A stretch of 44,348 nucleotides of DNA from IMG/VR virus record IMGVR_UViG_2740892273_000003, one strand, 5' to 3'. Below are positions 23,120 to 44,198 of the stretch, piece by piece (within the stretch, counting starts at the first letter, position 1; the number at the start of each line of letters is the position of its first letter). The stretch comes from a virus. Its lineage: Duplodnaviria > Heunggongvirae > Uroviricota > Caudoviricetes. The position numbers and the translations under genes were made by a program. The notes beneath the pieces were generated by a model. It was given only the letters and a program-made list of their open reading frames with translations, was not told where the DNA came from and made no database searches.

Positions 23120-23145
<26 letters not shown>

Positions 23146-23665
23146 TCAGCAACCCCGGTATCAGTTCATCCAGCGCGGCTGCTTTGTTCATGGCTTTGAT
23201 GATATCCCGTTTCAGGAAATCAACATGTCGGTTTTCCAGTTCCGGAAAACGCCGCTGCACCGACAGGGGGATCCCGTCGAGAATACTGGCAATTTCACCT
23301 GCGATCCGCGACAGCACGAAAGTACAGAATGCGGTTTCCACCACTTCAGCGGAGTCTCTGGCATTTTTCAGCTCCTGTGCGTCGGCCTGCGCACGCGTAA
23401 GTCGATGGCGTTCGTACTCAATAGTCCCTGGCTGGAGATCTGTCTCGCTGGCCTGCCGCAGTTCTTCAACTTCCCGGCGCAGCTTTTCGTTCTCAATTTC
23501 AGCATCCCTTTCGGCATACCATCTTATAACGGCGGCAGAGTCATAAAGCACCTCATTACCCTTGCCACCGCCTCGCAGAACGGGCATTCCCTGTTCCTGC
23601 CAGTTCTGAATGGTACGGATACTCGCACCGAAAATGTCAGCCAGCTGCTTTTTGTTGACTTCCAT
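23120..23665 (-). CDS. nu1: Terminase small subunit Nu1 (181 aa)
   Basis: MEVNKKQLADIFGASIRTIQNWQEQGMPVLRGGGKGNEVLYDSAAV... is near-identical to lambda Nu1 as recalled. Confidence 0.9.
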
Positions 23666-23699
23666 TGTTCATTCCACGGACAAAAACAGAGAAAGGAAA

Positions 23700-23880
23700 C
23701 GACAGAGGCCAAAAAGCCCGTTTTCAGCACCTGTCGTTTCCTTTCTTTTCAGGGGGTGTTTTAAATAAAAACATTAGGTTACGGCGAAGAAGAACGGAAA
23801 CGCCTTAAACCGGAAAATTGTCATAAATAGCGAAAACCCGCGCGCCTTCCGCCCCGTAACCTGTCGGATCACTGGAAAGG
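23700..23880 (-). other. cos: cos site (cosB with Nu1/IHF-binding region, and cosN)
   Basis: Minus strand reads ...ACGGGGCGGAAGGCGCGCGGGTTTTCGCTATTTATGACAATTTTCCGGTTTAAGGCGTTTCCGTTCTTCTTCG..., closely matching the lambda cos region; the candidate 12-nt cohesive end GGGCGGAAGGCG lies at ~23843-23854. Confidence 0.7.
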
Positions 23881-23955
23881 ACCCGCAATGATAATAATTA
23901 TCATCTGCATGCCGCAACACCTGAAAGTCAACGCGCCCTGAAAGCTGATTTGCTG

Positions 23956-24270
23956 TTACAAGCAATGCTTTTTTCTTTTTGTTTTATTGCTCATTGCCAC
24001 CAACTGTTCAGCCATCTCTCTTGTCACACTACCAGAAACCCTTTCTTGAATTTTCACAGAAAATTTTCTGGATGTAGTAGCATCGACATTAAAAAATCTG
24101 GATGTCATCAGGCAGTTATTAACAATTGGCATCAGCTCACTTACGATTGTAAAAAATTCCCGGTAAAGCTCATTTTGCTTTTCAACACACAGCTTTCCAC
24201 AATCGTCCAGCTTACGCTCAAGAGCACTTAACCTTTCCATTATTGAATTAATTTTTTGCAACTCTTTCAT
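23956..24270 (-). CDS. Hypothetical protein (104 aa) between the lysis genes and cos
   Basis: ATG at ~24270 preceded by AGGAGG at 7-nt spacing; the longer track ORF (to 24531) is an upstream extension running through a centromere-like palindrome. Confidence 0.5.
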   Translation of the reverse strand: MKELQKINSIMERLSALERKLDDCGKLCVEKQNELYREFFTIVSELMPIVNNCLMTSRFFNVDATTSRKFSVKIQERVSGSVTREMAEQLVAMSNKTKRKKHCL

Positions 24271-24294
24271 CAAAACCTCCTGACAAAGATACCG

Positions 24295-24310
24295 TGCGAC
24301 CACGGTCGCA
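24295..24310. repeat. sopC-like centromere palindrome copy 1 (TGCGACCACGGTCGCA)
   Basis: 16-bp inverted repeat with 7-bp arms TGCGACC/GGTCGCA; one of five copies in the window. Confidence 0.6.
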
Positions 24311-24514
24311 CGCTCCTGAATACATGCCCTGTTTCTTCCACCCTCGCACAGGACTGGCGAGCATGAGGGACAAACCCGCGAATCATTAGCGCGGTAAAAA
24401 CCCGGTGTGCATCGTTTTTGATTATTTCCGCACACTCGCGCAGAGGAGTTCCCCGTCGGGCTACGGTCATGGTTAATGCGGAAATACGGCGACGATGCAG
24501 CGCGGTATTTAATG

Positions 24515-24530
24515 TGCGACCACGGTCGCA
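24515..24530. repeat. sopC-like centromere palindrome copy 2 (TGCGACCACGGTCGCA)
   Basis: Identical 18-mer GTGCGACCACGGTCGCAC to copy 1, about 220 bp away in the same orientation. Confidence 0.6.
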
Positions 24531-24550
24531 CACGAGAAACAAAGAGATTT

Positions 24551-24862
24551 TTATGCTACAGAGGAACAAGCTGGCGGGTAATTCAGCGTAGTGAATACCG
24601 GCATCTCCATCTTGTATGCGTAATGATACTCAGCAGTTGCTCCAGCAGACGCTTTCCAGCCAGGAAGCATCAAAATAGCATCAGCACAACGAAGCATTGC
24701 AAAGCAAATATCCATGTATTCACGTTGTGTCAGACCATTAGGCAAAGTGGCTGGATTCAAGACAGAGTGACCATGTCGTGACAAACGATCTGCCTCTTTA
24801 TTAAAGGCGTCACGATTAAAGTTCTCATATCCAGTCATTGGCCCGGCAATATAAATTTTCAT
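24551..24862 (-). CDS. DUF4406-like protein (103 aa, nucleoside 2-deoxyribosyltransferase-like fold)
   Basis: MKIYIAGPMTGYENFN...VLNPA pattern recalled for DUF4406 proteins; occupies the post-Rz position. Confidence 0.45.
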   Translation of the reverse strand: MKIYIAGPMTGYENFNRDAFNKEADRLSRHGHSVLNPATLPNGLTQREYMDICFAMLRCADAILMLPGWKASAGATAEYHYAYKMEMPVFTTLNYPPACSSVA

Positions 24863-24903
24863 TCACTATCCAACAAATTGAGTTCGTTTTTGATACAGAG
24901 GGA

Positions 24904-25371
24904 TTAATTCGGGCATTGCGTCTTGATGTATTCCTGAAGCGTTCTCAGTGCTGTCTGGTCTCTGATGATTCCGTCCCGGATACCGAGAACGTTTCGTCCA
25001 GCAACTGGAGAGAGTTCGACGGTGGCATCATTGCCCATGCCGGAGGCGCTGGAGGTTTCGGCTGAGGATGGCACAGAGCATTTTCCTTTGACGAGCACCC
25101 GACCACCATTATCAAGCTTGCGCCGAAGAGCATCATTTTCAGCTTTCGCATCAGCCAACTCCTTCGTGTATTTTGCATCGAGCGCAGCAACATCACGCTG
25201 ACGCTGCTGCATGTCAGCGATGGTGGCGGTCGCCTGCTTCAGCTCACTGACTTTTTTATCACGCTGTTCTTTGTAGGCGATGGCGTTATCACGGTAATGA
25301 TTAACAGCCCACGACAGGCAGACGATGATGCAGATAACCAGTGCGGAGATAATTGCGGTTACTCTGCTCAT
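24904..25371 (-). CDS. Rz: i-spanin Rz
   Basis: [31 protein letters not shown]... (N-terminal TM, then coiled coil) matches the lambda Rz N-terminus; start overlaps R stop. Confidence 0.8.
24945..25151 (-). CDS. Rz1: o-spanin Rz1, embedded in Rz in the +1 frame
   Basis: [21 protein letters not shown]... has a lipobox (VVGC) followed by a proline-rich segment [11 protein letters not shown], as in lambda Rz1. Confidence 0.7.
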
Positions 25372-25868
25372 TGCTGCCCCCACAAACAGACTTCACGCTC
25401 AATCTCACGGCGAGTCATCAGCCCTTTCCATTGCTTGCCGCCAGCATATGTCCAGCGACGTAGTTGATCACATGCACCTTTGATATCGCCCTGGTTGATT
25501 TTGCGAAGAAGTGTCGATGTTCTGAAATTGCCTGCACCCACGTTGTAAACGAACGAGTAAAGAGCACCACGCGTTGTTTCCGGTATATCGACTTTGATGT
25601 ACGGGTTAATTTGTCTGGCGACAGTAGCAAGGTCTTTATTCAGGAGAGCTTTGCATTCTGCTTCGGTATACGTTTTACCGAGCATAATGTCTTTTCCTGT
25701 ATGCCCGTAACATACAGTCCATACACCAACGATGTCTTTGTAGGGGTTATGTCTCACACCTTCCAGACCATCGTTGCCGCTCGGACCAGAGATGAGCACA
25801 GATGCTATGGCAATAGCCCCGCCACCAATAGCAGTTGCGACAGCTTTGCGTAATGATGACTGCATCAT
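25368..25868 (-). CDS. R: SAR endolysin (T4-lysozyme-type muramidase with N-terminal signal-arrest-release domain)
   Basis: Gly/Ala-rich weakly hydrophobic N-terminus [18 protein letters not shown] followed by the E...D...T catalytic triad region [24 protein letters not shown]. Confidence 0.7.
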
Positions 25869-26232: not shown

Positions 26233-27354
26233 TTACTCAAATAACTTTTTCACTTCATCAACTGTCTGAAGATAACGTTCACCCTCAATCTCAATACCGA
26301 TTGCCTGACGACCTAACTTCAGCGCGGCTTTAATAGTAGAGCCTGATCCCATAAAGAAATCGGCAACGATATCTCCGGGGCGGGAACTACTTTTTATAAT
26401 ATGTTCCATCATCGCTGCAGGTTTTTCACATGGGTGCTTGCCAGGATAATATTGCACAGGAGGAAACTCCCATACATCGGTATAAGGTACATCAGCAGTA
26501 ACATGAAATGGGCGGCGCAAATTTTCATACTGAGCCTTCAAATCATCATACTGCTTCTTTACTTCCTCATAACGCAATTTCAGATCGCTATAACGCTTTT
26601 CATGTTCTGAATAATCAACATTAAAAGGATATGGACACGGGACACCGAGTGAATCTGCCTTCCTGCGAAATAATTCGCATAGTTTATTAAAATCACTTAA
26701 TGATGGAAGCCGCCACTGCGAATAAGAAAACCAGTGCGAACACATCTGCTTTCCTGTTGCTGAATTAATGTCTGCGGCTGATATATCTAACTGACGGCGA
26801 GCCAGCGAAAAAGCATCAATTAGTGGAGAAAAAATATTTTTTCTTAAATCTGCACATTTTGAAGCATAACCTGACTGACCTTTAGCATAACCTGACGCGC
26901 CGTAATGCTCTGCAAATAATATTCTTTCAGTGGCAGGAAAATAAGCCCTTAAACTTTCTTTATGACAACCGCGCCACATACCACTGGGTTTAGCCCAAAT
27001 GATATGGTTCAGAACATTGAAACGGTCGCGAGTTAATAATTCAATTTTTGACGCAAGGCGAGAGCCGGTAAACATATACAGGCTGCCATTAGGGGCCAAT
27101 ATCCGCCAAAATTCTGCCAAAAATTCATCAATCCACCCCAAAAAGTCAGCATCGCTATCCCACTGGTTATCCCATGCGTTAGCCTTTACGCCGAAGTATG
27201 GTGGGTCTGTTGCAATCAAATTGACCGAGTTATCAGGGATGGTTTTGATAAATTGCAGAGAATCTGCGCAAACGAGTTGCGCGCCATGAATATTAGTGGT
27301 TTTGAACATAGCTATTATTTTTTTGCCTGGGTAAGCTAACCCGGCGATGCGCAT
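26233..27354 (-). CDS. Orphan DNA amino-methyltransferase (N6-adenine or N4-cytosine); true start may be the internal MFKTT
   Basis: DPPY motif near the N-terminus (LIATDPPYFG) and FxGxG AdoMet motif near the C-terminus (DFFMGSGST); no adjacent restriction endonuclease gene. Confidence 0.75.
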   Translation of the reverse strand: MRIAGLAYPGKKIIAMFKTTNIHGAQLVCADSLQFIKTIPDNSVNLIATDPPYFGVKANAWDNQWDSDADFLGWIDEFLAEFWRILAPNGSLYMFTGSRLASKIELLTRDRFNVLNHIIWAKPSGMWRGCHKESLRAYFPATERILFAEHYGASGYAKGQSGYASKCADLRKNIFSPLIDAFSLARRQLDISAADINSATGKQMCSHWFSYSQWRLPSLSDFNKLCELFRRKADSLGVPCPYPFNVDYSEHEKRYSDLKLRYEEVKKQYDDLKAQYENLRRPFHVTADVPYTDVWEFPPVQYYPGKHPCEKPAAMMEHIIKSSSRPGDIVADFFMGSGSTIKAALKLGRQAIGIEIEGERYLQTVDEVKKLFE

Positions 27355-27534: not shown

Positions 27535-27554
27535 GCTTTTTCGTTTTTGTGCTG

Positions 27555-27570
27555 TGCGACCGTGGTCGCA
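27555..27570. repeat. sopC-like centromere palindrome copy 3 (TGCGACCGTGGTCGCA, opposite orientation)
   Basis: Same arms as copies 1 and 2 with the central dinucleotide GT instead of AC; extended palindrome CTGTGCGACCGTGGTCGCACAG. Confidence 0.6.
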
Positions 27571-27576
27571 CAGTTT

Positions 27577-32672: not shown

Positions 32673-32973
32673 TTTCTTGTGCGACCACGGTCGCACCCTC
32701 TCTGATTTCCAAGTAACGCTTAATCCAAAGATTTTCTATATGCTTATTACCTGGCTGATTTGATAAATACCAATCGGCAATTACAGACTGCTTATTACTA
32801 TCTGGTCGTGTCCTGTAACCACAAGTTGGACACCAGATAACATATTCATTTCTTACCCCCGAATACCTTAATTCTGGCTTCGACGGTTTCCTGAACATAA
32901 CTTGTTTACAAAGGCAGAATGGCACTTCCTGCCCGATGGCGTTTGATGATTTCACTGCGCTTCTCCGCCGCAT
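32653..32973 (-). CDS. Hypothetical protein with zinc-ribbon-like motifs (106 aa as given)
   Basis: CxC...CxxC spacing (FCLCK ... WCPTCGY); start uncertain (internal MFRKP also possible). Confidence 0.4.
   Translation of the reverse strand: MRRRSAVKSSNAIGQEVPFCLCKQVMFRKPSKPELRYSGVRNEYVIWCPTCGYRTRPDSNKQSVIADWYLSNQPGNKHIENLWIKRYLEIREGATVVAQENENNAI
32680..32695. repeat. sopC-like centromere palindrome copy 4 (TGCGACCACGGTCGCA)
   Basis: Same 16-bp palindrome in the early-right operon, at the junction of two small ORFs. Confidence 0.6.
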
Positions 32974-33616
32974 TTAATAATGCAGTTCGATTTAAGCTCA
33001 GACATCGCGACTTAATTAAAAGCCAGCGTTCTTTATAATCTTGTCTCCAGCTATCAATAGATATATTCAGTAGAAAACTCAGATGCCTGTCCTGTTCTCT
33101 CTCATCAACTGCCTCAGCACACGTAAGTTCTGACTTAACCTGCTGTGCCGCGTAATAAATCAATTTTCTCATGGCTTTTTTCGTGGAGGCCTTCATTTTT
33201 TTAAACCCGCCACCCGAATGCGCAACCAGAAAATCAAGCCATAACCACTGACAAACAATCACATCATTGTTGTAGTCAGGCTTGCATCCGTAGCAATAAT
33301 AAAGCCAGGCTGATTCCTCGTTATTCAACTGACCAATAGCCCTGCGCCAGCTGGCGCTCTGAAAATCAATATCAGTGAGCAACATTGATGATTGTTTAAA
33401 TGTTTTGCCCTGGTGGAATCTAACCGGCTCAGCAGGAACAGACACTTCGTATGAGTTATCATCACCTACACTGATTGACCGGACTGGTTTATTGTTAAAG
33501 CGTCCTGATCTGCCTAGACGCATCTGCTCAAGCTGGACCTCTAGGATGCCACGCTGGCGATAATGAATATCAGCCAATGCCGTGGAGACGCAGCTGCGTA
33601 TATACTCAAGCTCCAC
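32906..33616 (-). CDS. Hypothetical protein (236 aa) translationally coupled to cro; possible late regulator, function not established
   Basis: ORF overlapping the cro 3' end; contains a CxxC pair (YYCYGC); no family recognised by eye. Confidence 0.45.
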   Translation of the reverse strand: MELEYIRSCVSTALADIHYRQRGILEVQLEQMRLGRSGRFNNKPVRSISVGDDNSYEVSVPAEPVRFHQGKTFKQSSMLLTDIDFQSASWRRAIGQLNNEESAWLYYCYGCKPDYNNDVIVCQWLWLDFLVAHSGGGFKKMKASTKKAMRKLIYYAAQQVKSELTCAEAVDEREQDRHLSFLLNISIDSWRQDYKERWLLIKSRCLSLNRTALLNAAEKRSEIIKRHRAGSAILPL

Positions 33617-34760: not shown

Positions 34761-37700
34761 ATGACATTAAACGATTTCTATGCGGATCGCTTTGGCAGCG
34801 ATCCGTTCTCGCTAATTGAAGCAGCACGGGATGAACTAACCGAGCTGGCACAGATGGCTGGTATCAACTGGTCTGCCTGTTCCGACAACATCCAACTCAA
34901 CCCTCGCGGGGGTGTTGAGCGTTACTCTTCATACAATAAAACATCCCCAGAAGCTCTCGAAAAGAGCCTCAAAGGACGCGTAGAAATTTACTCCCGGCTG
35001 GAACACAGCAAAGGGATTGATTACCCGTTCATTAACTTCGTCCATAAAGGCAGCGATGCTGGCTCATGGAGCGGTTTCTCCTTCCTGTTTTCTGAATATC
35101 GCCGTGAGCAACAACGGAATAATGCGACCGTGGTCGCACAACCGGAAGAAGAACGGGCAAGAATAGAACGTCAGGCCGAAGCACGTCGTCGCCGTGAAGA
35201 ACAAAAACGAATTAATGACCTGAAAAACAACCAAATGGACCATGAACGTTTGCTGGGATGGCTGGCATTCCACAGTGCTTGGGAACATGCTCCTGCAGAA
35301 GACGGCTCATGGCCATATGCGATTAAAAAAGGTATTCGTGACGTTTTTAATTCGTGTGATGTGCGTCGCGTGACCAGTCACGACAGCGCAAAATGGAGCA
35401 GGGGGCCAACCACGTATATGGCTATCCCTCTGGCTCACCTGGACGGTCGTTACGATGGTCGTATTGTTGGTTGGCAGCGAATCGACAAACAAGGTGGAAA
35501 ATACCAGACCAGCGCCGTAACCAGCGGCGATTTCGTCGGTGCCTGCTTTGTTATCGGTGAGCTGAAAGGGGCGCAAAACATCGCTGTTACAGAAGGTTTT
35601 GCTACTGGTGCATCCATCTGGCTTGCCACGAAAAAAGATAAACGCTTTGACGCTGTGGTTGTCGCTGTATCCGCTAACAACATGGTTCATGTTGTGGAAC
35701 AACTGGTAAACATGTACCCGGCGGCAAAAATCACCTGCGCACTGGATAATGACCGGAAATCAGCTACAGAAGGAAAAGGGAATACCGGCCTGCGGACTGG
35801 CTATGAAATCTTATCGAAATTCAACGATGTCCGCTGCGTCTATCCAACTTTTGAAGACGATCCGCAAATGGAGTGCAGTGACTTCAACGACCTGCACAAA
35901 CTACGTGGACTTCGTGAAACAGCACGTCAACTGTTTGCAACTGCAAACCGCCTGAAAACTGGCACTGATTTGCTATCTCTGACGCTCAACCGCCTGAAGA
36001 CAATTAAGCGGGATAACCGTCGTACTTTTGCCAAAGAGCTGCTGAGAGCAGTGGATATTGGCATGCTAACCTGTCCGGTTCCTAACAGTCCGTCAGACTT
36101 ATTTAACATGTTCTGCATCGTCCTGCGTGAAATTGGGCTGGAAAATATCTATCGCGCTACGGTAAAAGACCACATTGCCCGTCGCCTGAATAAAAAGTGC
36201 CGTATTGCCCAGGCTCCGCGCTCATTCAGCGAACGAATAACTGATCCCAATAAACGTCCTCAACATATCACCTATAAGCGTTTTGAAACTTCGGTAATGA
36301 CCGATGACGTCCTGAAGTATGTGCAATCACTACAGGGGATAGTCATCGTTCGTGCTGGTATGGGTTCCGGCAAATCTACTGGATTGTTACGACCTTTAAT
36401 GCATAGCTCAGAACGTGGTATCTCTGTTGCTCACCGTGTTTCCCTTATTGGTGGCCTGTGGGAAATGATGACAGAAGGAAAAGGTGTAAAAGCCGATATC
36501 CTGCACTATCAGGACCCTGGCTATCAGGAAATGGCTCCATACGCCAGTAAACTGACCATCTGCATAAACTCGATTGTTAAAAACTGCTGGCAACCATTGA
36601 TGCGCCAGCACGACTATTTTGGCTTTGACGAGGCCACGCAAGGGCTACGTGCCGTTCTTTCCGGTCGGGCTATGGAAAACCCGGTGGCTGTATTCAATAC
36701 GTTAATTGACGCGCTGGCCAGAACGGAACAACACCCAATAATGGTGGATGCTGATGCGAACGATCTGCTGGTTGACCTGGCTGAACTGGCTATGAAACGC
36801 CGTGAAGAACTAGGTTTACCGGCATGGCTGCAGATCCACGTAATTGAATTACCTGTTGATGTTCGCAACCGCGAAACAGGTGAGCCAATCCGGGTTTTTT
36901 ATACAGAAAAAGATCGCATTATGACCGAGGTGGTGAAAGCTGTATCGAATGGCGAAAAAATCATGTTGGCCACCGACAGCTCCACCTTTGCAGAAGATGT
37001 GACCGCCACCCTGAGAATGCATTTTCCTGGTAAGAAATTTCTGTGTGTAAACCAGAAAAACAAACCAGAGCCAGAAGTTGAAGCATTTACCAATCAACCG
37101 AAAAAGATGGTCAAAAAATACGACGGCCTGATTTATAGCCCGTCTATTTCATCCGGTGTGTCGATTGAGCAAAAACATTTTGACCGTCATTTCGGCATGT
37201 TCTGTGGTGAAGTTGTACCCAGCGACGCAGTGCAAATGCTACGCCGCGACCGTACAGCAAAAGAATTTATTATCGGCTTTGATAAAGCTCGCGCAAAACG
37301 TGAAACTGACCCGCAAAAAATAGAACGAGCATTCGCCCAGGCATTGCTTGCTACCGCAGGCATGAACGGTGAACTGACGGATGTCGTTTTCGATGGCGAC
37401 CGTATATCAATGGGGGTGGCCAATACCGACTTTACCAGGATGAAAATTAAAGCAGCCGCAATTGAAGCGTCTGCGCGTAACGACTACGCCAGCAACATGA
37501 TCTGCATCATGCACAGCGACGGTTATAAGGTATCGCCGCTGGCCACCGATTATGCTGCGAATGATATCGGTAAAGATCTGCGTAAAGAAGCGCGGGATAT
37601 TGTGTGGGAACAGACACTGGATCTGCATCTCAATACAGAAACTCCACAAGAATCAGAGCGTGAAGAACTGCTAAAAAAACGCGCGCTGACGCTTGAAGAA

Positions 37701-38756
37701 CAAGCAAAACTTGTCCGCTGGGATATTGAGAACGAACTGAAACTACCGGTTGAAGAAGGCACGCTGAAATTCTATTTCGATGGTGCTCGAGACAAAGTTC
37801 GCCGCTATGAAACAATGCTTTTAGATGAGGTAACAGCTCGTCGTTACGACCGGGAAGAAGCAGCCATCAATTTTACCTACGCATACCGTCAGGCGGGACA
37901 GTGGCAATATTTTGTAGTGACCGCGATGACTCGCGAGCAGGCTGATGATGTCTTTAAAACTAAATTCCCTGGAATAATCGACTACAAGGTAAAAGCTACT
38001 CCTACTGTTGAAGTCGGGGCGCGCGGTTTCTATGCGCTTAAATCAGCAACTCTCCGGCAGTACTTTATCGACTGCGGTATCAACCCTGAGACTATGACCG
38101 GCGAGGCGACTCAGGAGCGTCTCAAATTCGCTCGAGATAACCTCATGACAGCCGAACGCCGTGACCTGTTGAATAACGTTCTGCACATTGGTGGTTTTAT
38201 GACGCCAAAAGGGAAGCCTAAAGTGCCGGAAGCGTTGTTTAAAAACATTTGCGACTCTCTTGGCCTTAAAACAGGTAAACGTCGCGGCAGAGACGGCGAT
38301 AAGCGTCCAACCTTGCGTTTTGTTGAGCCTGAATCAGCGGCATTTATGCTGGATATTCTTGTTCAGCGTCAGAAAGATGGCCTAACCCTAAAAACGCGTA
38401 AAGCCGAGAAGACAGCCATCGAAATGGATCGCGATTTGGATCTCAATATATATATGGATGATAAAACGCGATCCACAAACGAGCAGGTTCAAAACGCCCC
38501 TCATTCAGTAATTTCTGAGGCTTTGGCCGTATTGCCGGTGGCTGTTCCTGAGTCCTGGGCGATGAGTGCGCTTTCCGGTGAGGAGCTGGCCACTATGTCA
38601 TCATGGTCATCAGCCAGCATAGCTATGACGTTTGCATCTCTGTATCTCACAGAGTTCATGGATCACTTGTCCAGCAATGAATTGCGGCGGTTACGAGAAT
38701 ACATTACCGGGAATAGCTCATGCAGCTACGAAGAGCAGGGCGCTTTCTATGGGTAA
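34761..38756 (+). CDS. repA: Replication protein RepA, multidomain primase-helicase (1331 aa, N15 RepA-like)
   Basis: Toprim-like primase motifs (NIAVTEGFATGASI; CALDNDRK), Walker A (GMGSGKST) and Walker B (YFGFDEAT) in the central region; size close to the ~1.3 kaa N15 RepA as recalled. Confidence 0.8.
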   Translation: MTLNDFYADRFGSDPFSLIEAARDELTELAQMAGINWSACSDNIQLNPRGGVERYSSYNKTSPEALEKSLKGRVEIYSRLEHSKGIDYPFINFVHKGSDAGSWSGFSFLFSEYRREQQRNNATVVAQPEEERARIERQAEARRRREEQKRINDLKNNQMDHERLLGWLAFHSAWEHAPAEDGSWPYAIKKGIRDVFNSCDVRRVTSHDSAKWSRGPTTYMAIPLAHLDGRYDGRIVGWQRIDKQGGKYQTSAVTSGDFVGACFVIGELKGAQNIAVTEGFATGASIWLATKKDKRFDAVVVAVSANNMVHVVEQLVNMYPAAKITCALDNDRKSATEGKGNTGLRTGYEILSKFNDVRCVYPTFEDDPQMECSDFNDLHKLRGLRETARQLFATANRLKTGTDLLSLTLNRLKTIKRDNRRTFAKELLRAVDIGMLTCPVPNSPSDLFNMFCIVLREIGLENIYRATVKDHIARRLNKKCRIAQAPRSFSERITDPNKRPQHITYKRFETSVMTDDVLKYVQSLQGIVIVRAGMGSGKSTGLLRPLMHSSERGISVAHRVSLIGGLWEMMTEGKGVKADILHYQDPGYQEMAPYASKLTICINSIVKNCWQPLMRQHDYFGFDEATQGLRAVLSGRAMENPVAVFNTLIDALARTEQHPIMVDADANDLLVDLAELAMKRREELGLPAWLQIHVIELPVDVRNRETGEPIRVFYTEKDRIMTEVVKAVSNGEKIMLATDSSTFAEDVTATLRMHFPGKKFLCVNQKNKPEPEVEAFTNQPKKMVKKYDGLIYSPSISSGVSIEQKHFDRHFGMFCGEVVPSDAVQMLRRDRTAKEFIIGFDKARAKRETDPQKIERAFAQALLATAGMNGELTDVVFDGDRISMGVANTDFTRMKIKAAAIEASARNDYASNMICIMHSDGYKVSPLATDYAANDIGKDLRKEARDIVWEQTLDLHLNTETPQESEREELLKKRALTLEEQAKLVRWDIENELKLPVEEGTLKFYFDGARDKVRRYETMLLDEVTARRYDREEAAINFTYAYRQAGQWQYFVVTAMTREQADDVFKTKFPGIIDYKVKATPTVEVGARGFYALKSATLRQYFIDCGINPETMTGEATQERLKFARDNLMTAERRDLLNNVLHIGGFMTPKGKPKVPEALFKNICDSLGLKTGKRRGRDGDKRPTLRFVEPESAAFMLDILVQRQKDGLTLKTRKAEKTAIEMDRDLDLNIYMDDKTRSTNEQVQNAPHSVISEALAVLPVAVPESWAMSALSGEELATMSSWSSASIAMTFASLYLTEFMDHLSSNELRRLREYITGNSSCSYEEQGAFYG
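35123..35138. repeat. sopC-like centromere palindrome copy 5 (TGCGACCGTGGTCGCA), inside repA
   Basis: Same palindrome embedded in the repA coding sequence (encodes NATVVAQ). Confidence 0.6.
38424..38476. other. Candidate replication origin inside the repA 3' region
   Basis: Imperfect inverted repeats GGATCGCGATTT / AAACGCGATCC containing GATC sites, flanking an ATATATATAT tract. Confidence 0.35.
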
Positions 38757-42296: not shown

Positions 42297-44198
42297 TTAA
42301 CCGAAATATGTCAGCCATGCTAACTGCATTGCTGACATGGGGCTGTTTGCACTGCCGGACCACGCATAATTCTGGCCATTATAATGAAACTCAACAACGT
42401 ATGAGCCATCACCAATATTTCTCACCGGCTTAAATACCGGCTTAGATACAGGCGAAGAAGGTGCAGGCGGTTGCTGTTCTTCTACGCTATCTTCCTCTTC
42501 CTCTTCCTCTTCCTCTATCTCAATTTCGTCGTCATCCAGATCGTCATCCTCTGATAATTCATCCGCCAGTTCAGGTATTGCTTCCAGTTCTTCTTCGTCA
42601 GGCATAACGATTTCTGGAGTATCTATTTTCAGTTGCCATTGTCCGTTTTCGCCAACAAATTGCCCCAGAGCATCAGCAGCAAATTCCAGGTATCGACTAA
42701 TCATTGTTGGGCTAAATTTGAACGCTCTTAGAGTGCTGTTCGTGATTTTTATAGAGGGGTCCTGCTCTACCAGCTGCTTAACTGTGTTATGCAGACGAAC
42801 CCCGGCATCTCCTCTGGCGAATCCAGGCATTTCGTCATCAAGCTGCTGCAATGCTTCCAGCCTGGTATTTTCGTTTCCAGTATTTGGCCTCCATGTCTTT
42901 GAGAAGTTGGCCAGCTTGAATTGCTTATAGTGTAATTGAGTGTTTTCATCGTCATGGCCTAAAATTTCCATAAAGAAAACATCTTCATCTACGTTTTTCC
43001 AACGAGGATCTACGCGGAAAAACATTTCATACGCAATACGGGCATAAATAGCACGACTATCTTTATAAACACGGCGGTCATCTTTGAAAAATGATTTAAC
43101 CCACGGGTTAAAAGCCTTTGCTAATATGGCATTAATACGTCCGTTTTCAGAGCGTGTGTCGTTATCTCCATAACCTTTAACGACATCATCAAAATCAGAT
43201 GCTGCTGGGCATGAGCGAAGTACATTTATTAAATAAACAAATGTTTTTGCTTCGCATAATGTATATATTTTTCTGGTTATATCATCAGAAGTTCTTTTTT
43301 TAGCTTGGCCTAAAAAATCAACGGTATACTTACCAGAAACAGTAAATGTACCTTGATACATAATCTCAATCATTCGTCTTCCTGACAATGCAGCAAGTGC
43401 AAATGCCAAAGGAGCCATACCTGAACGAGTGTTTAGATTATTTAATGTAGCAGGGCTATTTATAATATCGTAAATAGCTTGCATATATTTAGGGTAATCA
43501 ATGACCACCACGTTACGTTTCTTATTGTGCAGAACGTCCGCCCATCGTTGCTGGATAGATGCACGTTCGGCAGGGCTTAGTTGAAGATGATAGAGAATCT
43601 CATGGTTAACTTTTAGCTGATTCAACTCCTCAAGTAAGGCAGATCCTTGCTGTAGTAATTTATATAAATAATCGCGCTTATCTTTCCAGTTATCGCTGGT
43701 TAAATCAGAAATGGCGAATTGCCACTCTTTATATTTATTTGATAATTTCAATAACTTATTATGACTTTTGTTATCGCCAATTCTGATATTAGATAAATCT
43801 TCTGATAGAGGGAGAATTAATTTTAATTTTGCCTGTAAAGCTGACATTCTCTGGCGAATATCGGCAGCAGGTAGAGAAAGCCATGACAATAGCTCCTCAT
43901 TATATAAAGGATACTTTTCAGATAGGCGATGTATATTTTTTTCAAAGCTATGATGAAGTTTATCATCAAACCGTTTTCTGGCCCTGCTCATATAGGCATT
44001 GAATGTGTTGGCTGTAATTCTTTTTTCTAATCCTTTCCCCCTAAACTTTCGCTTGTCATTAAATAATGCATTTTTAAATTTTAATGCAACAGCCTTTATT
44101 TTTTTTGTTTTCTCCCCTTGAGGACGGTCAGAGTTATCTATTGACTCAACATCGCTAACAAGTGAGTTTATTAATTCACCGATTTTTACTTTGCTCAT
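42297..44198 (-). CDS. telN: Protelomerase (telomere resolvase), TelN-like (633 aa)
   Basis: N-terminus MSKVKIGELIN..., internal blocks such as RITANTFNAYMSRARKRFDD and WRPN..ENTRL, and a C-terminal acidic tract match the N15 TelN protein as recalled; length is close to the 631-aa N15 protein. Confidence 0.8.
   Translation of the reverse strand: MSKVKIGELINSLVSDVESIDNSDRPQGEKTKKIKAVALKFKNALFNDKRKFRGKGLEKRITANTFNAYMSRARKRFDDKLHHSFEKNIHRLSEKYPLYNEELLSWLSLPAADIRQRMSALQAKLKLILPLSEDLSNIRIGDNKSHNKLLKLSNKYKEWQFAISDLTSDNWKDKRDYLYKLLQQGSALLEELNQLKVNHEILYHLQLSPAERASIQQRWADVLHNKKRNVVVIDYPKYMQAIYDIINSPATLNNLNTRSGMAPLAFALAALSGRRMIEIMYQGTFTVSGKYTVDFLGQAKKRTSDDITRKIYTLCEAKTFVYLINVLRSCPAASDFDDVVKGYGDNDTRSENGRINAILAKAFNPWVKSFFKDDRRVYKDSRAIYARIAYEMFFRVDPRWKNVDEDVFFMEILGHDDENTQLHYKQFKLANFSKTWRPNTGNENTRLEALQQLDDEMPGFARGDAGVRLHNTVKQLVEQDPSIKITNSTLRAFKFSPTMISRYLEFAADALGQFVGENGQWQLKIDTPEIVMPDEEELEAIPELADELSEDDDLDDDEIEIEEEEEEEEDSVEEQQPPAPSSPVSKPVFKPVRNIGDGSYVVEFHYNGQNYAWSGSANSPMSAMQLAWLTYFG

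Follow-up and report, generated by a model that had tools for sequence, protein, structure and literature searches.

The two identical 18-bp palindromes that lie between the lysis genes and cos of the N15-like phage-plasmid studied here are most probably loading sites for a SopB (ParB) protein of the N15 type, which together constitute a doubled "IR4" near cos and belong to a set of five dispersed sites. We adopt this reading because of four lines of evidence, namely the sequence identity with a known N15 site, the conservation of position, the conservation of the palindrome arms, and the cognate genes carried by complete relatives. The pair differs from the arrangement in N15 in copy number and context only, and nothing supports a regulation by the pair of the DNA between or beside the two copies.

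The palindromes in the window

The window, i.e., the whole stretch of 44,348 nt analysed in this study, reads as a contig of an N15-like (Ravinvirus-type) linear phage-plasmid, and it can be aligned with N15 over most of its length, in reverse orientation and with ~70-77% identity. The exact 18-mer GTGCGACCACGGTCGCAC occurs on the plus strand at 24294-24311 and again at 24514-24531, in the same orientation, with a period of 220 bp and a spacer of 202 bp, just as the initial annotation had described; the interval 24295-24530 given there is bounded by the outer ends of the two 16-bp cores. When up to three mismatches are allowed, five sites (10 strand-matches) are found in the window vs 0.02 expected from shuffled sequences, and each of the five palindromes consists of 7-8-bp arms and a 2-bp centre. 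Along the minus strand the order is Rz, the DUF4406 gene, the lysis-proximal site, the spacer, the cos-proximal site, the GGAGG motif with the 104-aa ORF, the cos-like sequence, Nu1 and the large terminase subunit. The placement of the pair between the lysis genes and cos, which had also been noted at the outset, therefore agrees with the gene map, with Rz and DUF4406 on one side and the cos-like sequence and Nu1 on the other. The features to which the following text refers are listed below.

23120-23665, minus strand: Nu1
23843-23854, minus strand: putative cosN 12-nt cohesive-end sequence GGGCGGAAGGCG, 8 of 12 bases matching the annotated N15 cohesive end GGGCGGCGTCCG
23956-24270, minus strand: 104-aa ORF with RBS GGAGG at 24277-24281; N-terminal fragment of the phrog_2571 family (function unknown)
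24294-24311, no strand assigned: cos-proximal palindrome, core 24295-24310, TGCGACC-AC-GGTCGCA, exact match
24312-24513, minus strand: spacer of 202 bp, the core of which (~24315-24503) is a widespread non-coding lambdoid module
24514-24531, no strand assigned: lysis-proximal palindrome, core 24515-24530, exact match
24551-24862, minus strand: DUF4406 gene (nucleoside 2-deoxyribosyltransferase-like; Pfam PF14359, E = 3.7e-34), homologue of N15 gene 57
24904-25383, minus strand: Rz
26233-27354, minus strand: methyltransferase gene
27554-27571, no strand assigned: third site, positional equivalent of N15 IR3, ~200 bp upstream of the methyltransferase gene
32679-32696, no strand assigned: fourth site, positional equivalent of N15 IR2, directly downstream of the Q-like antiterminator ORF
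32906-33616, minus strand: Q-like antiterminator ORF
34761-38756, plus strand: repA-like ORF
35122-35139, no strand assigned: fifth site, positional equivalent of N15 IR1, within the repA-like ORF
42297-44198, strand not given: protelomerase gene (tblastn)

The lysis-proximal palindrome is located 20 nt past the stop codon of the DUF4406 gene, whose product is 83% identical to N15 gp57 (tblastn), and related phage-plasmids and prophages have kept this palindrome together with its flanks. The cos-proximal palindrome precedes the RBS of the truncated phrog_2571 ORF on the minus strand; it is the copy that the initial annotation had called downstream and had put ~15 bp from that RBS, a description which holds when read along the minus strand, with the distance to GGAGG corrected to 12 nt. 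The DNA outside the cos-proximal 18-mer is unrelated to that outside the lysis-proximal one. By simple arithmetic, the centre-to-centre distance of 220 bp amounts to ~21.0 helical turns, which puts both sites on the same face of the helix.

As to the cos side, we place cosN, as a candidate, directly upstream of Nu1. The 104-aa ORF matches positions 1-102 of the 291-position phrog_2571 profile and has no family match in a Pfam search, and its homologues have a length of 286 aa in PhiR46_1 and of 198 aa in YDC107_1; it is probably a deletion remnant adjoining cos. A tblastn search of the window with the N15 proteins detected neither sopA nor sopB. Positions 1-90 are identical to an end of IS1, and since the window starts inside this IS1 end, the contig is broken at position 1. 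In N15 and its relatives the partition genes adjoin the telomere, and the sopA and sopB genes of the source element, if present, must lie beyond the contig break.

Correspondence with N15 and its relatives

The core of both copies in the window, TGCGACCACGGTCGCA, is the same as that of N15 IR4 (N15 45562-45577) at all 16 bp, and the IR4 oligonucleotide listed in Table 4 of PMC7205306 has the same 16-bp core. N15 carries four copies of TGCGACC-NN-GGTCGCA, at 33480, 35931, 41125 and 45562. Lane and co-workers joined N15 IR1-IR4 into an N15 centromere at which foci of N15 SopB form (PMC7205306, Table 4 and text). Through the window-N15 alignment, the third to fifth sites of the window map onto IR1-IR3 and the pair occupies the IR4 region; by context, repA harbours IR1, the Q-like gene is closely followed by IR2, and IR3 precedes the methyltransferase gene and the late region. 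Across IR1-IR3, the arms are identical to those of N15 at 41 of 42 positions, with the 150-bp flanks being 61-78% identical and the central dinucleotide differing at two of the three sites. According to our own calculation, an arm identity of 41/42 has a chance of ~1e-5 at a background identity of ~71%. Invariant arms around a free central dinucleotide are the pattern that would be expected of a site for a dimeric DNA-binding protein. In N15, IR4 is located ~0.8 kb from cos, between gene 59 and gene 58, the latter a cytosine methyltransferase gene that the window lacks, and the N15 record labels it only as a putative rho-independent terminator hairpin.

The identical site-spacer-site block is present in YDC107_1 and PhiR46_1. 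The latter is a complete telL-to-telR genome with the identical pair and five sites in total, whose SopA and SopB are 93% and 74% identical to those of N15, the central region being well conserved. With the core equal to N15 IR4 and with SopA and SopB encoded by complete relatives that have the same pair, the proposal of the initial annotation that the 18-mers are centromere sites is supported. Since neither sopA nor sopB is within the window, we infer binding of the cognate SopB from these relatives, and by analogy with them SopB binding and partition would take place at the pair. Judged from the biology of N15 and F, SopB dimers on each palindrome of the plasmid prophage would nucleate a partition complex, SopA would position this complex, and the two sites, at a distance of 220 bp, would work together as a single point of slightly stronger nucleation.

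The block is also found in at least 23 PLSDB plasmids, from E. coli, E. albertii, E. fergusonii and Shigella sonnei, as well as in 25 complete E. coli records (14 plasmids and 11 chromosomes). The comparison with N15-like genomes that had been suggested together with the initial annotation thus finds the pair in many relatives and no scars of a duplication. A second allele of the block, 3-4% diverged, has both cores perfect in plasmids (L015, L019); alleles that differ by only 3-4% give the conservation of the cores, as a sign of purifying selection, little statistical power.

The number of sites varies naturally. The N15-like plasmid pZ1323HEC0355-3, with sopA, parB and protelomerase genes, has the lysis-proximal copy only and four sites in total. 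An E. fergusonii plasmid (L014) carries one site by the DUF4406 gene and another one 1.75 kb away, on the cos side of the spacer; this plasmid also provides a copy of the site with a single mismatch. Three sites occur in the lysis-cos region of an IMG/VR contig (L033), at 10744, 12430 and 12650, where a second spacer copy, partly deleted, has the third one on its cos side, in addition to the pair. A single IR4 in the style of N15 is seen in a Pseudocitrobacter N15-like contig. Among the species-representative genomes, no match was found for two sites 195-212 bp apart, and the exact 18-mer is represented there mostly by single chance matches in GC-rich Actinobacteria, further matches being the Pseudocitrobacter contig and an Escherichia sp. 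chromosome with a one-sided form of the block (see below).

In the record of YDC107_1 (CP025712.1), the protelomerase, antirepressor-region and repA genes are given twice, in inverted arrangement, at ~34650-46701, with a sixth site at 45081. This inverted duplicate looks like an assembly read through a hairpin telomere, and not like real gene content.

The spacer, its crossovers and alternative readings

Homologues of the spacer core, with 82-96% identity, occur in 424 phage records and 3181 of 5426 complete E. coli genomes, and of 143 copies whose flanks were examined, 123 have no site on either side. In HK630 (lambda-type) the module lies between a p78-like gene and bor, and in a DLP12-like prophage between ylcI and iss; in the window-N15 alignment, N15 is without it. 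A protein-coding role of the spacer, through ORFs of 99 aa and 191 aa, was considered and rejected in view of single-base indels among close relatives. A promoter scan detected no sigma-70-like promoter in the spacer on either strand. The promoter TGGACA...TACAAT that is annotated in the homologous segment of lambda and HK630 has the form CGGTCA...TACGGC in the window as well as in the majority of lambdoid copies, so that a bor-type promoter is not conserved. An Rfam scan of 23600-25000 at E <= 1 found no family in the spacer, with chance miRNA and lncRNA matches outside the spacer only.

The segment 24322-24508 of the spacer has a conserved secondary structure which is specific to the sense of the late transcript (minus strand). 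The RNAalifold consensus fold reaches -43 kcal/mol on the minus strand vs -24 on the plus strand, with 99.3% of cells paired across 51 distinct spacer homologues. Compensatory changes are seen at four pairs, through G.U intermediates that work only on the minus strand, and the covariation score, which derives from few independent events, is 0.092 vs 0.060 for shuffles and 0.013-0.055 for slid controls. The spacer may represent a structured element, not described before, of the late mRNA of lambdoid phages.

Concerning the origin of the arrangement, the pair probably results from modular recombination of N15-like phage-plasmids with resident lambdoid prophages, the lysis and packaging modules of the two being almost identical, and a lambdoid non-coding spacer would thereby have come to be bracketed by two copies of the site. 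Later crossovers, either in the spacer or between the 18-mers, have then probably led to the one-, two- and three-site forms and carried sites into integrated prophages. In the one-sided forms the spacers are chimeric, with the site-linked allele next to the site and the ordinary lambdoid allele elsewhere, and at least five different breakpoints are present among six examples; because of these chimeric spacers and differing breakpoints, we regard the one-sided forms as independent crossover products of a two-site parent. Genomes of the PhiR46_1 type have a second copy of the spacer, 92% identical and nearer to cos, and a crossover between the two spacer copies would give exactly the "spacer + site + DUF4406" forms of L009 and L016. 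In a similar way, a crossover between the two 18-mers would give the collapsed single-site form L010, which has exactly the outer flanks of the pair.

The identical block is also located in an integrated lambda-like prophage beside sbcB in the chromosome of E. coli MS1657 (L013, 20378-20613). This prophage comprises an integrase, N, a cI-like repressor, rexA, cII, the nin region and Q, whereas neither partition genes nor a further site were found in the 41 kb examined. Further integrated lambda-like prophages with N15-type sites and no partition genes are L007, L008, L009, L010, L018 and L150. In complete E. coli genomes, the two site-plus-spacer junctions were found in 44 and 27 genomes, at 33 chromosome vs 15 plasmid places and 18 vs 12 places, respectively, all of these counts being lower bounds, as a diverged allele escapes the junction search. 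Since the block exists in prophages without Sop and the junctions are commoner on chromosomes, the sites can be maintained in the absence of SopB, at least temporarily. A decayed lysis-proximal site, AGCGACCACGATCGCA, is shared by one chromosomal lineage (seven records); it fits a relaxed selection without SopB, as a single event, and the only other decay seen is the mismatch in one plasmid copy (L014). The head and packaging genes of the phage-plasmid lineage are ~98% identical to those of resident E. coli prophages and ~77% identical to those of N15, hence there is ample homology for exchange. Both kinds of partner are present together in E. coli Z1323HEC0355, in which the prophage in the chromosome (NZ_CP148363.1) has the site followed by the spacer and the N15-like plasmid (NZ_CP148365.1) has the spacer followed by the site; a single exchange within the spacer would restore the block with two sites there.

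Several other explanations of the pair have to be weighed against the SopB-site reading. That the palindromes are mainly recombination joints, as short linkers or cruciform-prone hot spots between lambdoid and N15-like modules, and that their doubling is a by-product, seems unlikely to us. It would suit the exchange of neighbours around the site, since three left neighbours (the phrog_2571 gene, the spacer end and a cos-side sequence) and two right ones (the DUF4406 gene and the spacer start) occur in four observed combinations, and it would equally suit the two contexts (L010 and L014) in which the copies have collapsed by exactly 220 bp, as well as the existence of a three-site form. However, the best-documented breakpoints are inside the 190-bp spacer and not at the 18-mers, a length of 16-18 bp makes a poor substrate for homologous recombination, and the conservation of the arms at IR1-IR3 across ~25% divergence would be left unexplained. 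A role as joints is compatible with the SopB-site reading rather than exclusive. A broader and quite improbable version is that the palindromes double as portable recombination joints and, with the spacer, drive the exchange of modules between phage-plasmids and prophages, thereby seeding SopB decoy sites in E. coli chromosomes; if this were true, chromosomal SopB sites could disturb the partition of incoming N15-like plasmids (centromere incompatibility). As for the two identical direct 18-mers being the scar of a recent local tandem duplication, or, since they are palindromic and can also be read as terminal inverted repeats, the ends of a small transposable element, we consider both extremely improbable. 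Only 18 bp are repeated, no target-site duplication exists outside the 18-mers, every occurrence of the block is at one and the same lysis-cos locus (median, one place per genome), and the spacer is foreign lambdoid DNA known from thousands of genomes without sites. A tandem duplication or MITE-like element is contradicted by these observations, and the footprint of a duplication, which the initial annotation had offered as an option, does not agree with a spacer that is an independent lambdoid module normally without sites.

Spreading of ParB or SopB can silence nearby promoters, which is established for F and P1. The idea put forward with the initial annotation, that SopB, when bound to the two palindromes, makes the spacer loop or silences it and keeps the neighbouring 104-aa gene repressed, can draw on this fact, on the 12 nt that separate the cos-proximal site from the RBS of that ORF, and on the spacing of 220 bp, which at ~21 helical turns makes looping sterically possible; a silencing assay is also mentioned in PMC7205306. 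It is nevertheless very unlikely to apply here. The spacer has no promoter-like site on either strand that could be silenced, the 104-aa gene is within the Q-dependent late operon, and this supposed target is truncated in the window, with 104, 198 and 286 aa among relatives that have the same pair. In addition, the neighbours of the sites vary freely and the block is unchanged in prophages that have no SopB. The absence of a promoter, the truncated ORF and the retention of the block without Sop together speak against looping or silencing of the segment or the gene.

We give still less weight to a role of the palindromes in the late transcript, whether as hairpins, as weak intrinsic terminators, or by a mutual pairing which closes a processable domain (e.g., for RNase III), and regard it as highly improbable. 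The terminator label of IR4 in the N15 record points in this direction, as does the cos-proximal copy, which in a lenient scan is scored as weakly terminator-like on the minus strand with the tail GTATCTTTGT. The minimum-free-energy fold of the minus strand (24285-24540) pairs both copies in a 19-bp helix with two G.U pairs that encloses the spacer (the corresponding plus-strand helix has a mismatched centre), and the conserved strand-specific fold of the spacer and the persistence of the block in Sop-less prophages can be cited for it as well. On the other hand, the lysis-proximal copy has no U-tract and fails the terminator scan, and the terminator-like matches total 3 vs 1.5 +/- 1.2 in shuffles, which is not above chance. 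A terminator would have no purpose within the repA ORF or at the two other conserved positions that have the same palindrome, and the invariant arms of the palindrome with their free centre carry the signature of a dimeric DNA-binding protein site. Moreover, any two copies of a palindrome pair with each other automatically, and the z-scores of the fold are modest (-2.5 and -2.9).

Significance and relation to known systems

With the two 18-mers read as SopB sites, a natural variant is added to the textbook picture of N15 with its four dispersed sites: in an E. coli lineage with lambda-like packaging genes, the number of cos-proximal sites ranges from one to three and the total can be four or five. 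This copy-number series makes a ready-made set for studying how the number and spacing of sites affect ParB loading and plasmid stability. Frequent exchange of DNA between phage-plasmids and prophages is also documented, with mapped crossover points, and it is through this exchange that plasmid centromere sites are found in many E. coli chromosomes. The known mechanism of partition is unchanged, and the value of the result is mostly one of annotation, in that the palindromes should be labelled as SopB sites and not as terminators.

The nearest known arrangement is IR4 of N15, which shares with the pair the 16-bp core, the 7-bp arms with a variable 2-bp centre, and the region between the area of gene 57 (DUF4406) and cos. 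The difference is that N15 has one site near cos and four in total, whereas the lineage of the window has two, 220 bp apart, and five in total; related elements carry one, two or three sites in the IR4 region. Furthermore, the local flanks of the pair are not homologous to the interval between gene 58 and gene 59 of N15, and the pair brackets a lambdoid module absent from N15.

The centromere sopC of F, a type Ia ParABS centromere, has the same palindrome architecture, but consists of tandem 43-bp repeats each with a 16-bp SopB site. An F-type core, TGGGACCACGGTCCCA (as in L017), shares 12 of 16 positions with TGCGACCACGGTCGCA, with two differences per arm. It was reported that N15 SopB uses both the N15 and the F type of site, while F SopB cannot use N15 sites (PMC7205306). 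The arms of sopC are TGGGACC in place of TGCGACC here, and the pair of the window is without the 43-bp periodicity, being split by 202 bp of unrelated DNA. An F-type sopC centromere was accordingly rejected as an identity of the pair, the arms being wrong and the two copies standing 220 bp apart with no 43-bp tandem array. In a Salmonella N15-like plasmid of a different terminase type, pAR-0403 (L017), there are two F-type cores, TGGGACC-NN-GGTCCCA, at 178-193 and 1355-1370, 1.2 kb apart and near the packaging genes, so that the presence of more than one centromere site close to packaging genes is a recurrent feature, here with another site specificity.

Dispersed chromosomal parS sites are scattered around an origin region, and ParB is loaded at them. 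The sites of the window resemble them in that several identical short palindromes over ~11 kb are presumed to nucleate one partition complex, and differ from them in belonging to a plasmid-prophage system, in their SopB specificity of the F/N15 family, and in their location in the phage regulatory, late and cos regions. Finally, the palindromes with their spacer are like the linkers at the module boundaries of lambdoid phages, as they stand at mosaic junctions and the spacer serves as a site of crossover between phages. Unlike such linkers, the 18-mer has an independent and documented role in protein binding, and its own use in crossovers is only suggested by the combinations of its neighbours.
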